Sequence record: PP047755
Direction: 5' to 3' (one strand)
Source of the DNA: Escherichia phage KEP1
Length of the DNA: 64,000 bases
The notes under the pieces are model-generated. The model was not told where the DNA came from. It did no database searches and was given only the letters and a program-made list of their open reading frames with translations. Positions 9,914-16,570 of this stretch are shown one piece after another (position 1 is the first letter of the stretch; every line of letters begins with the position of its first letter). The position numbers and the translations under genes are program-made.

Positions 9914-10456
9914 TTAGAAAAAGCTCTTTAAATCCTCTTCTGCAATGTTTCCTGTCAGTGTATCCATGATGTCACAAAAAACCTGAATACTGTCTGAATG
10001 TTGAACACTTTTAGCGAGAAGCTCCAGAGACTCATTAAGATAGTTTAAATTTGGGTTATCCAATGAAGGAAGACAAAAAGGTGAATACATAGCGTTAAAC
10101 TCTGTTGTATAGACCTTTTTAATCCAATTTACATCAAAGTACTCTGTAAAACTTGCTACACTCGACATATTATCACAAGAATAATCATCATTTAGCTCAT
10201 CCTCTGGAATATCTAGTTCTAAGATAACAATATTTTGGGTTTTCATCTGGAAAGCTGCGGTGATAGTGGCATTTCCTAGAGCTTGTTGGATACCTTCTGA
10301 TGCTATTTCTTCCTCATCGTCGCCATAGATTTTATTTTCTGGATACACGTAAAAATTGCCGTCCATATCCGAACAATTCCATGCGCCTGATGGTTTATCA
10401 CCGTTATTAATCAGGTTGATGAAGTTTTCTTGAGTAGTACCGTGAAAGCATTTCAT
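9914..10456 (-). CDS. hypothetical acidic protein (180 aa), cassette gene
   Basis: ORF preceded by type B cassette element; terminator-like hairpin AGCCCCT-ACA-AGGGGCT downstream at 9865-9881. Confidence 0.65.
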   Translation of the reverse strand: MKCFHGTTQENFINLINNGDKPSGAWNCSDMDGNFYVYPENKIYGDDEEEIASEGIQQALGNATITAAFQMKTQNIVILELDIPEDELNDDYSCDNMSSVASFTEYFDVNWIKKVYTTEFNAMYSPFCLPSLDNPNLNYLNESLELLAKSVQHSDSIQVFCDIMDTLTGNIAEEDLKSFF

Positions 10457-13197: not shown

Positions 13198-13503
13198 TCA
13201 GTTAATTTCCAGTTTTGCATAGCCTCTCATTGTACGAATGGGGGATGTTAAGGCTACGCGTCTAATATATGCCTTTTTCGTGTATACATTTGTCTTCCCG
13301 ATAGTGTTTACACATGTAAAAAGGTTTATTGGTGAATTTTTTAACTTCAACTGTTTATCAGTCTTCACGCCCCATCTTACAGCAGATTGTTTTCCGTTGT
13401 CAACCACTTTCCCACCTAACTTTTTCGCCATAATGCGAGCGTCATCACGAGTTTTTGCAGGAATTACAACGTTTTTGATAGTAGCCATTTTTAAGTTCTC
13501 CAA
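13198..13503 (-). CDS. hypothetical basic protein (101 aa), cassette gene
   Basis: ORF preceded by type B element. Confidence 0.65.
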   Translation of the reverse strand: MENLKMATIKNVVIPAKTRDDARIMAKKLGGKVVDNGKQSAVRWGVKTDKQLKLKNSPINLFTCVNTIGKTNVYTKKAYIRRVALTSPIRTMRGYAKLEIN

Positions 13504-13576
13504 TTTAGGATTTAGTGGTAAAGCTCTTTATCTGGGGCTTACTTTATCGAACTATAAGCCCCTTGTAAAGTACTTT
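13504..13576 (-). promoter_or_regulatory. cassette element B5
   Basis: Near-identical to B1/B2. Confidence 0.7.
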
Positions 13577-13957
13577 TTATTTAATTTTGAAGATTGTCAC
13601 GTAGCCATCACTGCCGATGATTTGTGATACCCCAGCTTTTTCTACTTGATAGCCCATATTTTCCAGATGATAGATAGCATCGTCATAACCATATGCACCG
13701 CCCTGATAACGTCGCTTATCACATCTTACTAAAACCTTTCCACGTCCTGCCAGTGCATTTAGTACAGCTTTTTCACTTGATAGCATACCATCTATCATGG
13801 TTGCCGTGTAATGGTTGATTTTATTCCCGTTGATATCATACTTGAAATTGAACGAGTGAACAACGATAACGTTACCTTTAAAATTCTCATCAAGTGACTT
13901 CTCCAGTGCGTTGCGAAAGTTGTCTTTATTGATGAATTTAGGTGCACGGTATGCCAT
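13577..13957 (-). CDS. hypothetical protein (126 aa), first cassette gene
   Basis: ORF preceded by A-type element and a strong promoter. Confidence 0.65.
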   Translation of the reverse strand: MAYRAPKFINKDNFRNALEKSLDENFKGNVIVVHSFNFKYDINGNKINHYTATMIDGMLSSEKAVLNALAGRGKVLVRCDKRRYQGGAYGYDDAIYHLENMGYQVEKAGVSQIIGSDGYVTIFKIK

Positions 13958-14023
13958 TTTAGAATCTCCTAGTTTAAGGTTAGTTATTTAGTGGGGAAGG
14001 TTATTCCCTCTCCGTTGATGCAA
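13958..14023 (-). promoter_or_regulatory. cassette element A7 (hairpin plus conserved 5'UTR)
   Basis: TTTTAGAATCTCCTAGTTTAAGG..GGGGAAGGTTATTCCCTCTCCGTTGATG. Confidence 0.65.
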
Positions 14024-14052
14024 ATATTAGATAACCATAGCCAAAGAGTCAA
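14024..14052 (-). promoter_or_regulatory. near-consensus sigma70 promoter TTGACT-17-TAATAT heading the cassette array
   Basis: -35 at 14047-14052 and -10 at 14024-14029 (minus strand), 17-bp spacer, followed by the conserved hairpin/5'UTR. Confidence 0.6.
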
Positions 14053-14219
14053 GAAAAATTTTAAAAATATTTTTGAAAAAAAAAAAACTGTAATGGAACG
14101 GGCGCACGCGACTACCACAAAACAGAACTACAATCAAGAATTATTTTTCAATCCGCTACAAATTTTTCTCTTGACTTTTGGGGAGAGGGGGAGTAAGAGG
14201 GAAAGAGGGGCTTGGCTGG

Positions 14220-14410
14220 CTATCTATAAAAACCTACCTGCACAATTCTAAAATGATTTTTCTTGCCCGACCTGAGCGGGGTCTGCACGTTTTGAAAATG
14301 AAAAAGCTCTTTGGAGATTACCTGCACAATTTGAAAATGAATTTTCTCTTTGGAGTTCAAAATTCTCTCTACAGATTTCTCTACAGAACTCTACCTGCAC
14401 AATCCTAAAA
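14220..14410. repeat. three direct repeats of TACCTGCACAAT-NN-TAAAATGA, plus one degenerate copy, in a 530-bp intergenic region
   Basis: Copies at about 14226, 14318 and 14388; related GCACGTTTTGAAAATGAAAAAGC at about 14285. Confidence 0.6.
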
Positions 14411-14486
14411 TGAAAAAGCCCTCCTTACCTGAAAAATTTAACAGATAAGAAAGGCTTAGCCTATTGTGAATATTCTACAGAGTTTC

Positions 14487-15272
14487 TTAGTTCTTTGCGT
14501 CTAAGAAGGTAGCTTCTTGTGATGAGAAAATTTCCTCGATATCCTCATCAGTTCTTGCATAGATATAAGTATCTGCATCACTGCCAAATGTTACTGCAAT
14601 CCTGTGATTGCTCTTCGACAGGTGGGTAACTAGAGCGTTACTTAGAGACATCTTTTCAACCGGAGGGTTACTTTGATGTATCTTACCTTTTCTTCGTCTG
14701 AAGAGGGTAACTGTATTGTCTGTGAACGTTACTACACCTGCAAAGTATTCCGGTTCACAGTAGTTCTTCCAACCTGAGAGTAACTTGTGGTACATCTCTC
14801 CTTCGTAGACATACAGATAGACATCTGCACTCTTCATCACCTGATTAATGATAACGGTGACGGCTTGAGGGTCTAGTCCACCGATACCTGCACCAATCAT
14901 AGGTAACCCAACTTTCTTCAACTGATTAACTTCACAGTACCTGTTAAGCTGTTTCAAAGATGATTCTAAAGCACTGTATCGGGCATCTTTGCCAGTCTTA
15001 AGCTGAGTGTAAAGGTTAGCTATACGGCCTTGTTTTAAACGTGCTACAGAGAAATTACCTAGTAAGTTCTCACAGGGCTTGTGGCCTATGCCACCTGCAT
15101 ACAGATAAACTTCTGTATCAGTCTCATATGCTTTTGGGTAAAGTTTAGAAATCTTGTCAGCGATACCTGCACCCATTAAATTCATACAGTTGCAACCGTG
15201 ACCAATGACGTCAAACTTACCTTTATCAAATGCGGCAAAGATATCACCATTGATGATTTTTACAATACCCAT
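14487..15272 (-). CDS. macro domain protein, TARG1/OARD1-like (putative ADP-ribosyl hydrolase) with C-terminal domain of unknown function
   Basis: GDIFAAFDKGKFDVIGHGCNCMNLMGAGIA and LPMIGAGIGGLD match the TARG1 signature (GDLF..HCISEDCRMGAGIA, MPRIGCGLD). Confidence 0.7.
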   Translation of the reverse strand: MGIVKIINGDIFAAFDKGKFDVIGHGCNCMNLMGAGIADKISKLYPKAYETDTEVYLYAGGIGHKPCENLLGNFSVARLKQGRIANLYTQLKTGKDARYSALESSLKQLNRYCEVNQLKKVGLPMIGAGIGGLDPQAVTVIINQVMKSADVYLYVYEGEMYHKLLSGWKNYCEPEYFAGVVTFTDNTVTLFRRRKGKIHQSNPPVEKMSLSNALVTHLSKSNHRIAVTFGSDADTYIYARTDEDIEEIFSSQEATFLDAKN

Positions 15273-15473
15273 TTAACATCTCTCCCAAGATTCTTTATCT
15301 TCTGAAGGTTTTACACGTTGTCCTTCATGGTCTACCCAGATACATCCACAACCTTCACAGATTACTGGCATTGCATAGCCAGCTTTAAAGTCATCTTCAG
15401 TGATAAGACCTTTTAAGTCACCTGTATCACGTCCGAACATTTCGATAGCACAATCTTTGCAGAAGTCAGCCAT
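15273..15473 (-). CDS. small Cys-rich protein (66 aa from the MADFCKDC start)
   Basis: CxxC...CEGCGC motifs; ATG overlaps upstream stop (ATGGCTGA). Confidence 0.5.
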   Translation of the reverse strand: MADFCKDCAIEMFGRDTGDLKGLITEDDFKAGYAMPVICEGCGCIWVDHEGQRVKPSEDKESWERC

Positions 15474-15699
15474 GAATAATTGCCTCTTGAATGATGATAC
15501 CTTTACCACAACGATTTTTAAAGTCTTCCAATGGTTCAGAGAAGAAGTCACGGAAATGGTTACTGCACTCACGTTTCATCACCTTCTTGTAAGTTAACAC
15601 ATCTTCTCCTGTAAACGGGACGACTTCATGTCTCCCTTTGAATACTGCTGAACTTACAATCTTACGTGTCTTTTTATCTCTGGCTAGTATTACTTTCAT
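15466..15699 (-). CDS. hypothetical protein (77 aa)
   Basis: ORF in operon. Confidence 0.55.
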   Translation of the reverse strand: MKVILARDKKTRKIVSSAVFKGRHEVVPFTGEDVLTYKKVMKRECSNHFRDFFSEPLEDFKNRCGKGIIIQEAIIHG

Positions 15700-16039
15700 A
15701 GTTTACCTTCTCAGTTAGCTCATATAAATCAACATGCTCAATACTATCAATGTTGATACCAATCTTTTTGAAGCGTTCTATCACTTCGTTGTCAGTCATC
15801 CATATCAGACACCAATGATTGTGGATGGATTCTTCAAGAAGGTCAACACAATCTTTAAAAGTTTTTGTATCACTTCTTGTTCCGACTACTGCGATTGTCC
15901 CATACAACCACTTACCATTACCATAAGATACTTGTGCTACGCCAACTTCTTTATCTTTCTCGTAGTAAACGGCTACAAAGTCTCTTCCATTAATCTGCAT
16001 TTGTAAGTTCCTCTGTTGGTAATTCACCATTTTCAGCAA
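15674..16039 (-). CDS. hypothetical protein (121 aa)
   Basis: ORF in operon. Confidence 0.55.
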   Translation of the reverse strand: MLKMVNYQQRNLQMQINGRDFVAVYYEKDKEVGVAQVSYGNGKWLYGTIAVVGTRSDTKTFKDCVDLLEESIHNHWCLIWMTDNEVIERFKKIGINIDSIEHVDLYELTEKVNYESNTSQR

Positions 16040-16304
16040 AGTACTGAAGGTATGGCAATAACTCTTTCACCTGTTCTTGGTTGAGTTTCATTCTTTGGTT
16101 ACCTACAAAATCTTTGCCTACTAATGCTGGGATATCAAGTGTTTTCCAGCCACCATCTAGGTACTGAACAGAGACCTCTTTAGCACCTAACCAAATACAT
16201 GGTTCATATGATGAACTCTCTTGTAAAGTACAAATTTCCCCTTTAGCATCTTTAAATTCTGCATAAGAAAATCCACGATTTGTTGGCTGGAATTGCATAA
16301 TCAT
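15990..16304 (-). CDS. hypothetical protein (104 aa)
   Basis: ORF in operon. Confidence 0.55.
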   Translation of the reverse strand: MIMQFQPTNRGFSYAEFKDAKGEICTLQESSSYEPCIWLGAKEVSVQYLDGGWKTLDIPALVGKDFVGNQRMKLNQEQVKELLPYLQYFAENGELPTEELTNAD

Positions 16305-16570
16305 TTCCTCGTTTTGAGAACTGCTAAGATTTCTTTAGAGTCTGGTAAGAACCATGTGTAGTGATTCTCTTTGATTTCTGGATGAGTGTCAACCTTTATT
16401 TTGCACTCTTTACCAACGTGCTTAAGCTGTGCTGTGACACCTTGCATAAAGATATGACACATCACATTATCCATAATGGTTGGTAAGAAGTCAATTCGCA
16501 TATAAGTTTCTTTTGGTCGTGGTAACAGTAAGTAACCCTCTACGTAAAAAGTATCTTCATTCTCTGTCAT
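16301..16570 (-). CDS. hypothetical protein (89 aa)
   Basis: ORF, ATGA overlaps. Confidence 0.55.
   Translation of the reverse strand: MTENEDTFYVEGYLLLPRPKETYMRIDFLPTIMDNVMCHIFMQGVTAQLKHVGKECKIKVDTHPEIKENHYTWFLPDSKEILAVLKTRK

Follow-up and report, generated by a model that had tools for sequence, protein, structure and literature searches.

What is the function of a phage macrodomain protein whose orthologs are labeled "phosphatase", "macro domain-containing protein", or "hypothetical protein"? This question arises at a gene in a 64,000-nucleotide stretch of Escherichia phage KEP1 (PP047755; the whole stretch is hereafter called the window), which is part of a Felixounavirus genome (Felix O1-like, Ounavirinae). 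The gene occupies positions 14487..15272 on the minus strand. The original prediction, made from the sequence without database searches, described its product as a TARG1-like macrodomain fused to an uncharacterized C-terminal domain, and proposed that the protein reverses host ADP-ribosylation in an anti-DarT-like role or processes the ADP-ribose products of NADase defenses. Here we report that the protein is a two-domain variant of a phage clade of macrodomains that carry a glutamine in place of the catalytic lysine of TARG1 (Gln-type macrodomains). It falls outside the DarG equivalog and outside the Lys-Asp type represented by TARG1. The best-supported reading is that it serves as an anti-DarT2 DNA de-ADP-ribosylase. 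Judged from sequence relationships, we give this reading a probability of about one half. It is favored because of the homology of the protein to T4 Tk.4 and because of its SCO6735-type active site.

Fold and Conservation of the Protein

The predicted open reading frame (ORF) is sound. It codes for 261 amino acids (aa) between an ATG start and a TAA stop, and a Shine-Dalgarno-like GGAG (15282..15285, minus strand) lies 9 nt 5' of the ATG. The surrounding region (13500-16500) shows 98% identity with Escherichia phages KEP3 and vB_EcoM_DE17; with many other phages the value is 92-94%. The full-length protein was found in 269 phage records; the ortholog in the BASEL phage Bas63 is bas63_0095 ("putative phosphatase"). 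The protein also matches PHROG 335 over its full length (E 1e-111), a family labeled "phosphatase". Among four orthologs, the pairwise ratio of nonsynonymous to synonymous substitution rates (dN/dS) is 0.02-0.10 in the first 156 residues; in residues 157-261, it ranges from 0.02 to 0.25. Because the ratios are low in each half, both halves of the protein are translated and constrained. Across Ounavirinae-like phages, the gene is syntenic and under purifying selection.

The assignment of the N-terminal ~150 residues to the macrodomains was borne out by several searches. Residues 1-156 (14805..15272, minus strand) form a Gln-type macrodomain of the ALC1-like class that includes TARG1, DarG, Poa1p, and SCO6735. 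Pfam PF01661 (Macro) matched residues 25-141 (E 1e-7), and its score of 32.3 bits clears the cutoff of 22. The DarG profile of PADLOC (PDLC02990) matched with E 8e-13 over profile positions 14-146 of 329, and that of NCBIfam (NF048014) with E 4.6e-12 over positions 12-150 of 338; both alignments are confined to the macro part. PADLOC returned no family other than DarG, and no other NCBIfam family reached significance.

Structure prediction, which had been suggested as a check, recovered the macro fold. An AlphaFold model of the full-length protein, built on 19 homologs, reached a mean predicted local distance difference test score (pLDDT) of 84.6 and a predicted template modeling (TM) score of 0.85. 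Foldseek returned 203 matches in the Protein Data Bank (PDB) at E ≤ 1e-3, and the top 50 listed are essentially all macrodomains. The leading matches are TARG1 (E 6e-9, TM 0.82), DarG from Thermus aquaticus (TM 0.78), yeast Poa1p (TM 0.74), and DarG from Mycobacterium tuberculosis (TM 0.72). The model shows the three-layer alpha/beta/alpha arrangement of macrodomains with two glycine-rich loops, MGAGIA and GAGIGG, that can be aligned with those of known macrodomains. TARG1 was also the best match in the PDB when the single sequence was used as the query (E 9e-6). A profile of the clade matched TARG1 (E 2e-17), M. tuberculosis DarG (2.5e-15), BT1257 (4.5e-15), SCO6735 (1.6e-14), and Poa1p (4e-14). 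Because these values are similar, we conclude that the clade is about equally far from all characterized members of the class.

An SCO6735-Type Active Site

To which enzymatic type does this macrodomain belong? We compared catalytic positions in HMMER, BLAST, and MAFFT alignments, using sequences of TARG1 and Poa1p that are exact with respect to the PDB and DarG sequences taken from HMMER alignments. The TARG1 signature noted in the original prediction is only partly present. GDIF (residues 9-12) and MGAGIA (residues 33-38) are found as described; the motif given as HC.S.D reads H-G-C-N-C-M-N, and the downstream loop given as IG.G.D reads IGAGIG, with Gly131 at the position of TARG1 Asp125. 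A TARG1-type catalytic site does not hold up, since the equivalents of both TARG1 residues are missing: Lys84 is replaced by Gln90 and Asp125 by Gly131. The original prediction had itself named such an outcome as a refutation.

The residues that do line the predicted site can be read directly from the minus strand. The codons for His25-Gly-Cys-Asn28 span 15189..15200, where gtg at 15198-15200 is the reverse complement of CAC (His25) and gtt at 15189-15191 that of AAC (Asn28). We take His25 and Asn28 as the equivalents of His24 and Asn27 of SCO6735. Asn28 also aligns with Asn23 of the PhiKZ protein AdfM, and mutation of the asparagine at this position lowers AdfM activity (PMC13309987). The first glycine-rich, ADP-ribose-binding loop, M33-G-A-G-I-A38, is encoded by 15159..15176 and is conserved in TARG1, DarG, PhiKZ AdfM, and the phage clade. 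Gln90 (ctg, the reverse complement of CAG, 15003..15005) is part of an NLYTQ motif and occupies the position of TARG1 Lys84, DarG Lys80, and SCO6735 Gln85. The second glycine-rich, phosphate-binding loop, G127-A-G-I-G-G132, is encoded by 14877..14894 and is equal in length to GVGNGG of DarG and GCGLDR of TARG1. We also considered whether Asp134 in GGLD could correspond to TARG1 Asp125 through a two-residue gap. This alignment was rejected, given the equal loop lengths, Gly131 at the Asp125 position, and a proline at the Asp134 position in T. aquaticus DarG.

The threonine of the LYT motif is invariant among the proteins aligned by the three programs. The residue that follows it is lysine in TARG1 (Lys84), in both DarG proteins (Lys80), and in PhiKZ AdfM, where the DarG and AdfM lysine is part of an FPTK motif; here it is Gln90. 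This glutamine is invariant in 19 of 19 two-domain homologs and in a 17-sequence alignment of the wider Gln-type set that includes T4 Tk.4, and it is found in most bacterial and viral relatives. In a few of the latter, the preceding threonine varies (NLYAQ, NLYGQ, NIFGQ) or the motif was not seen in a regular-expression scan. His25, Asn28, Gln90, Gly127, and Gly129 are all invariant among the 19 two-domain homologs; in Kolesnikvirus phages, such as Erwinia phage Roscha1, His25 is replaced by Gln.

By alignment, this set reproduces His24, Asn27, Gln85, Gly126, and Gly128 of SCO6735, with Gln90 equated to Gln85 by transitivity through Lys84 and Lys80 rather than by a direct residue alignment to PDB entry 5e3b. 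SCO6735 lacks the TARG1 residues Lys84 and Asp125 and has His24 and Gly126/Gly128 in addition to Gln85, its equivalent of Lys84/Lys80 (PMC9411070). The Q85A variant is inactive, and N27S abolishes or nearly abolishes activity. The same study showed that SCO6735 efficiently cleaves thymidine-linked ADP-ribose on single-stranded DNA and protects cells from DarT. Since SCO6735 is active with a glutamine at this position, and T4 Tk.4 has the same glutamine, absence of the TARG1 Lys/Asp pair does not imply that the domain is inactive.

Homology to T4 Tk.4 and the DarTG2 Connection

The closest relatives outside the Ounavirinae were found by tblastn in T-even phages, where the gene lies beside vs; in T4 it is Tk.4. 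Over 134 aa, the macro part of the KEP1 protein is 40% identical to Tk.4 (E 3e-24). In HIDEN-SEQ, growth of a T4 transposon library on cells carrying DarTG2 gave tk.4 as the sole significant hit, and a clean tk.4 knockout renders T4 sensitive to DarTG2; the 2025 preprint named the gene adfM (bioRxiv 10.1101/2025.11.20.689424). An earlier paper had found that T4 without AdfA and AdfN is still resistant to DarTG2 and predicted a further factor. PhiKZ gp104 (AdfM), a macrodomain from another phage, strips the ADP-ribose added by DarT2 from DNA in vitro and also rescues DarT2 toxicity (PMC13309987). This protein is of the Lys-containing type and only 23% identical to the KEP1 protein. The anti-DarT role put forward in the original prediction thus gains indirect support from a 40% identical relative that T4 needs against DarTG2, and for the KEP1 protein it stays a prediction from homology.

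Two further observations concern dispensability and distribution. In the laboratory-host and defense-strain tables of the PhageMaP preprint, bas63_0095 has positive fitness scores, which mark it as dispensable; DarTG lies outside the systems covered by these tables. Such dispensability is as expected for a conditional anti-defense gene. Phage T5 is restricted by DarTG2, and neither tblastn nor a hidden Markov model (HMM) of the clade detected a macro homolog in the whole 121,750 bp T5 genome. The same HMM gave exactly one match in the window. T5, which has no macrodomain, carries T5.102 (locus L047, 6447-7265), a gene annotated as Sir2-like NAD-dependent deacetylase/ADP-ribosylase.

On these grounds we propose the following mechanism. 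The product would be an accessory protein, probably made from the early region as judged from the position of the gene near rIIA/rIIB and an array of small ORFs. In single-stranded phage DNA, its macrodomain would bind thymidine-linked ADP-ribose and hydrolyze the N-glycosidic bond. We infer that the defense countered in this way is DarTG2: hydrolysis would undo the replication-blocking mark that host DarT2 sets. Catalysis would follow SCO6735 rather than the Lys-Asp chemistry of TARG1, with Asn28 holding Gln90, Gln90 positioning the distal ribose, and an activated water molecule performing the chemistry. The C-terminal domain may be a lineage-specific accessory module, for example for targeting to DNA or the replisome, or for toxin binding. 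This last step is the weakest point of the model and draws only on the analogy with DarG, which also has two domains.

The C-Terminal Domain

Residues 157-261 (105 aa; 14490..14804, minus strand) are predicted to adopt an orphan fold of a helix, six beta strands, and a helix that occurs only in Ounavirinae-like macro proteins. The secondary structure is alike in the full-length model and in a model of the domain alone (pLDDT about 77-89). The statement that the C-terminal ~110 aa carry no recognizable motif has withstood profile, Pfam, and structure searches. The domain matched no Pfam family and no PDB structure, its matches in BFVD (viral structures) are confined to the same phage family, and a word-index homology search with the domain alone returned no match. 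When 1.84 billion representative proteins were searched exhaustively with a profile, it was detected only in the same two-domain family. Weak multistretch matches to long repeat proteins (PQQ/beta-propeller-like and adhesin-like) were regarded as compositional noise. No separate gene for the domain was found near T4 tk.4, near the bacterial homologs, in T5, or as a paralog in the window.

The domain evolves quickly. Identity to homologs ranges from 16 to 92%, compared with 40-96% for the macrodomain, and only Pro174, Gly179, and Tyr236 are conserved. It is under purifying selection, yet diverges at about twice the rate of the macrodomain. Distant two-domain homologs (33-41% identity) retain the synteny of rIIA and rIIB, the polynucleotide kinase gene, and the macro gene. 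Single domains of ~150 aa make up most of the macro clade in IMG/VR, and long C-terminal extensions (~75-120 aa) occur only on contigs of 84-94 kb, the size of Ounavirinae genomes. At least three extension types are mutually unrecognizable by sequence: the Felixounavirus type, the Kolesnikvirus/Roscha1 type, and the type found in the IMG/VR contig L109.

The macro protein of Erwinia phage Roscha1 (Kolesnikvirus; locus L010, 4998-5780) has 260 aa and the same genomic position. The protein of contig L109 (84.7 kb) is of the same size class, with 281 aa. In neither protein could any likeness to the Felixounavirus domain be detected in the C-terminal extension, which measures ~105-120 aa in the two. 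Homology between the Roscha1 and Felixounavirus extensions was tried and rejected: hhalign gave a probability of 0.07, and a faint P-x-x-[FY]-[DA]-G motif, visible by eye at the start of some versions, is insufficient.

Such a pattern would result if one domain had diverged very fast or if it had been replaced repeatedly, and it is characteristic of modules whose contact partner varies. A rather doubtful extrapolation is that the protein evolved independently in phages as a functional counterpart of full-length DarG. In such a protein, the Gln-type macrodomain would act as the eraser and the new-fold domain would bind and block DarT2-like toxins or another host factor, with the C-terminal versions of Felixounavirus, Kolesnikvirus, and related phages tracking host toxin variants.

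Alternative Functions

Several results weigh against an anti-DarT2 function. The case for the KEP1 protein and its Felixounavirus orthologs rests on homology, and Tk.4, the only genetically tested relative, is 40% identical and known by genetics alone. The match to the DarG equivalog NF048014 scores 45.9 bits, far under the 250-bit cutoff. Motif 1 (H-x-C-N-C) is closest in alignment to the phosphatase Poa1p. The C-terminal domain was also compared with the DarT-binding domain of DarG, and this identity was rejected, as neither DarG profile nor any structure matched. Charge offers no clue to DNA binding or DNA mimicry, because the isoelectric point of the domain varies from 4.6 to 9.5 among homologs without a trend. 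No DarT gene was identified near the bacterial Gln-type homologs in 12 inspected loci, and clustering of neighbors across all 35 loci revealed no DarT-like partner, with Pfam scans limited to the neighbors in Pleionea and Undibacterium. Taken together, the homologs in these two genera sit with ADP-ribosylglycohydrolases (ARH), microbial PARG, NrtR, and KptA/Tpt1, which points to a broader role connected with ADP-ribose.

The individual loci are arranged as follows. In Pleionea sp. CnH1-48 (NZ_JAMXSB010000015.1; locus L015, 2135-7268), the order is KptA/Tpt1, ARH, NrtR, Gln-type macro protein, PARG, and ARH. The Undibacterium locus (L020, 4070-6424) is organized as an ARH-macro-ARH operon in which stop and start codons overlap. 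In a metagenomic protein of 339 aa (P0027), the Gln-type macrodomain is fused to cREC_REC (PF20274, "cyclic-phosphate processing receiver domain").

The company of ARH and PARG instead of DarT would suit a general eraser of RNA or protein ADP-ribosylation that reverses the action of other host ADP-ribosyltransferase toxins (for example, mRNA-modifying CmdT-like enzymes or enzymes that modify RNA ends or uracil) or limits a phage transferase. Macrodomains of this class are promiscuous, as illustrated by SCO6735, which acts on DNA and protein (PMC9411070), and by TARG1, which acts on several substrate types; RNA-ADP-ribosylating defenses have also been published. A nearby early ORF (9914..10456, the ortholog of bas63_0107) is reportedly weakly similar to the NAD-binding domain of Tpt1. 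Nevertheless, sequence searches of the window confirmed no ADP-ribosyltransferase, and DarTG2 is the only system to which genetic evidence ties the clade, so that we consider such an eraser unlikely, if still a serious candidate. The missing lysine could instead be read as the mark of a noncatalytic protein that captures immune signals derived from ADP-ribose (gcADPR, His-ADPR) or engages DarT but performs no hydrolysis. Published Thoeris II effector macrodomains do bind His-ADPR, and catalytically dead SCO6735 still inhibits DarT by interaction (PMC9411070). This explanation appears very improbable to us in view of the invariant SCO6735-type catalytic set, the strong constraint on the macrodomain (dN/dS 0.02-0.10), and the lack of any likeness to known sponges, with macro and DarG families alone returned by PADLOC and Pfam.

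The main rival is a Poa1p-like small-molecule enzyme that works for NARP1, the phage pathway of NAD+ reconstitution. The NARP1 genes of Bas63 rebuild NAD+ from ADP-ribose via ADP-ribose pyrophosphate (ADPR-PP). A macrodomain that converts ADP-ribose-1''-phosphate or by-products (hydrolyzed ADPR-PP or ADP-ribose cyclic phosphate (ADPR-cP), or O-acetyl-ADP-ribose) to ADP-ribose would feed Adps and Namat and save the ADP-ribose pool when NADase defenses fire. The "phosphatase" label of PHROG 335 and the label "Poa1p-like" on relatives agree with this idea, as do the H-x-C-N-C...G-x-G-I-A signature and the missing lysine that the protein has in common with Poa1p (TM 0.74). Poa1p dephosphorylates ADP-ribose-1''-phosphate, which derives from ADPR-cP in the Tpt1-to-Poa1p pathway. 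The Pleionea homolog resides in an NrtR-linked island with KptA/Tpt1, a maker of ADPR-cP, P0027 is fused to a cyclic-phosphate-processing receiver domain, and the macro gene of Vibrio phage Ceto adjoins a ribose-phosphate pyrophosphokinase-like gene. Felixounavirus has NARP1, and in Bas63 its genes (bas63_0079/0080) lie 9.6 kb upstream on the same strand; published work detected ADPR-PP and its breakdown product ADPR-cP in Bas63-infected SIR2-HerA cells. However, ADPR-cP builds up in wild-type infection and thus evidently escapes efficient clearance. The scheme would in addition need a cyclic phosphodiesterase, and none was identified. Deletion of genes 79-80 alone abolished the anti-SIR2-HerA effect, with no role reported for gene 95. 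The macro gene of Bas63 is not adjacent to NARP1, from which it is separated by rIIA/B, polynucleotide kinase, spanins, and six small ORFs. The same macro clade occurs in T4, where its loss gives the DarTG2 phenotype, and T4 is not known to carry NARP1. On balance, a recycling function for NARP1 seems improbable, albeit not far-fetched.

Genomic Context

Directly upstream of the macro gene lies a gene for a 66-aa, zinc-ribbon-like protein with a CxxC...CxxC pattern (15273..15473, minus strand; PHROG 2210, unknown function), the TAA of which abuts the ATG of the macro gene. Its start is placed at Met34 of a longer ORF, where the PHROG 2210 match begins, in agreement with a 201-nt ortholog coding sequence annotated in Bas63 and Pr103Blw. 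The position of this gene is kept in both phages (bas63_0094 in Bas63). The two genes belong to the same transcription unit and are probably translationally coupled. Farther upstream in the same orientation, as annotated in phages D4 and Bas63, are the spanins, polynucleotide kinase, rIIB, rIIA, and the two NARP1 genes, which carry the annotations ribose-phosphate pyrophosphokinase and nicotinamide phosphoribosyltransferase. No darT was found beside the macro gene, where the neighbors are small phage ORFs without a Pfam family; a window-wide scan for DarT was not made.

On the downstream side of the coding strand, a 530-bp spacer (intergenic 13958-14486) is followed by a sigma70-like promoter and the small-ORF array. 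The promoter, TTGACT-17-TAATAT (14052..14024, minus strand), is located as the original prediction had stated, with the macro gene just upstream of it. Between the macro gene and this promoter, the element TACCTGCACAAT occurs in three exact copies (14235, 14319, and 14392) inside 34-nt direct repeats at window positions 14223-14428, with a degenerate fourth copy at ~14283. The chance expectation for this 12-mer in the window is 0.4, and exact copies are restricted to 14223-14428. These repeats may serve as operators, as phage-specific promoters, or in some other regulatory capacity.

The same early array contains the 180-aa ORF at 9914..10456 (minus strand), which starts with MKCFHGTT and belongs to PHROG 3303 (unknown function). 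According to the PhageMaP preprint, its ortholog bas63_0107 weakly resembles the NAD-binding domain of the RNA 2'-phosphotransferase Tpt1 and is more important on E. coli S17-1. Pfam and PDB sequence searches for a recognizable ADP-ribosyltransferase were negative for this ORF. Its product is possibly a small NAD-using or ADP-ribosyltransferase-like protein.

Implications

Only very recently have phage macrodomains that reverse the ADP-ribosylation of DNA been recognized as counter-defenses, with T4 Tk.4 and PhiKZ gp104 as the examples. Felix O1-like phages are widely used as candidates for typing, biocontrol, and therapy of Salmonella and E. coli. If the gene studied here neutralizes DarTG2, it would help to explain and predict the host range of these phages, and the two-domain form would provide a natural test of what an accessory domain contributes to an orphan antitoxin. 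If it works with NARP1 instead, a recently discovered route to NAD+ would gain a recycling step. Hundreds of phage records carry the label "phosphatase", which is probably incorrect or does not tell the whole story. Within a large clade of phage and bacterial proteins, the norm is the Gln-type active site, of which a single Streptomyces protein provided the first description. The new elements here are the C-terminal domain, an orphan that diverges rapidly, and a possible connection with NARP1.

Comparison with Known Systems

How does the KEP1 protein compare with the characterized members of its class? TARG1/OARD1 (4j5r, 4j5s) has the GD[IL]F motif, the histidine, and the MGAGIA loop in common with it, and differs by Lys84 in place of Gln90, Asp125 in place of Gly131, and a serine in place of Asn28. 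Yeast Poa1p (6lfq) reads H-S-C-N-C...G-G-G-I-A where the KEP1 protein reads H-G-C-N-C...G-A-G-I-A, and it likewise has no lysine after the conserved threonine. This likeness is the source of the "phosphatase" annotation. Poa1p differs in that a serine, after an insertion, takes the position of Gln90, a long insertion precedes loop 2, and the protein consists of a single domain.

DarG from T. aquaticus (5m31/5m3e) and M. tuberculosis (5m3i) belongs to the same structural class (TM 0.72-0.78) and follows the same two-domain plan with an N-terminal macrodomain. DarG and PhiKZ gp104 AdfM have the conserved asparagine and the same length of the G-x-G-x-G-G-L-D loop as the KEP1 protein. SCO6735 from Streptomyces coelicolor (5e3b) resembles the KEP1 protein in the absence of Lys84, Asp125, and Lys80 and in the presence of the glutamine, histidine, asparagine, and Gly-x-Gly residues. 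In contrast to the KEP1 protein, SCO6735 is a bacterial, stand-alone, DNA-damage-inducible protein with no C-terminal domain. Pairwise similarity between the two is weak (E 0.41), and Lys34 and Lys89 of SCO6735 are without clear equivalents.

T4 Tk.4 (AdfM(T4)) belongs to the same macro clade, with matching H-G-C-N-C, M-G-x-G, N-L-Y-T-Q, and I-G-A-G-I-G motifs and a glutamine at the lysine position, and it too is phage-encoded and, judged from its genome position, an early accessory gene. After the G-x-G-x-G loop, the sequences of Tk.4 and the KEP1 protein continue with GKGNWD and GGLDPQ, respectively. A genetic phenotype is known for Tk.4 and not for the KEP1 protein. Tk.4 is a single domain of 155 aa, to which the KEP1 protein adds a C-terminal domain of 105 aa.

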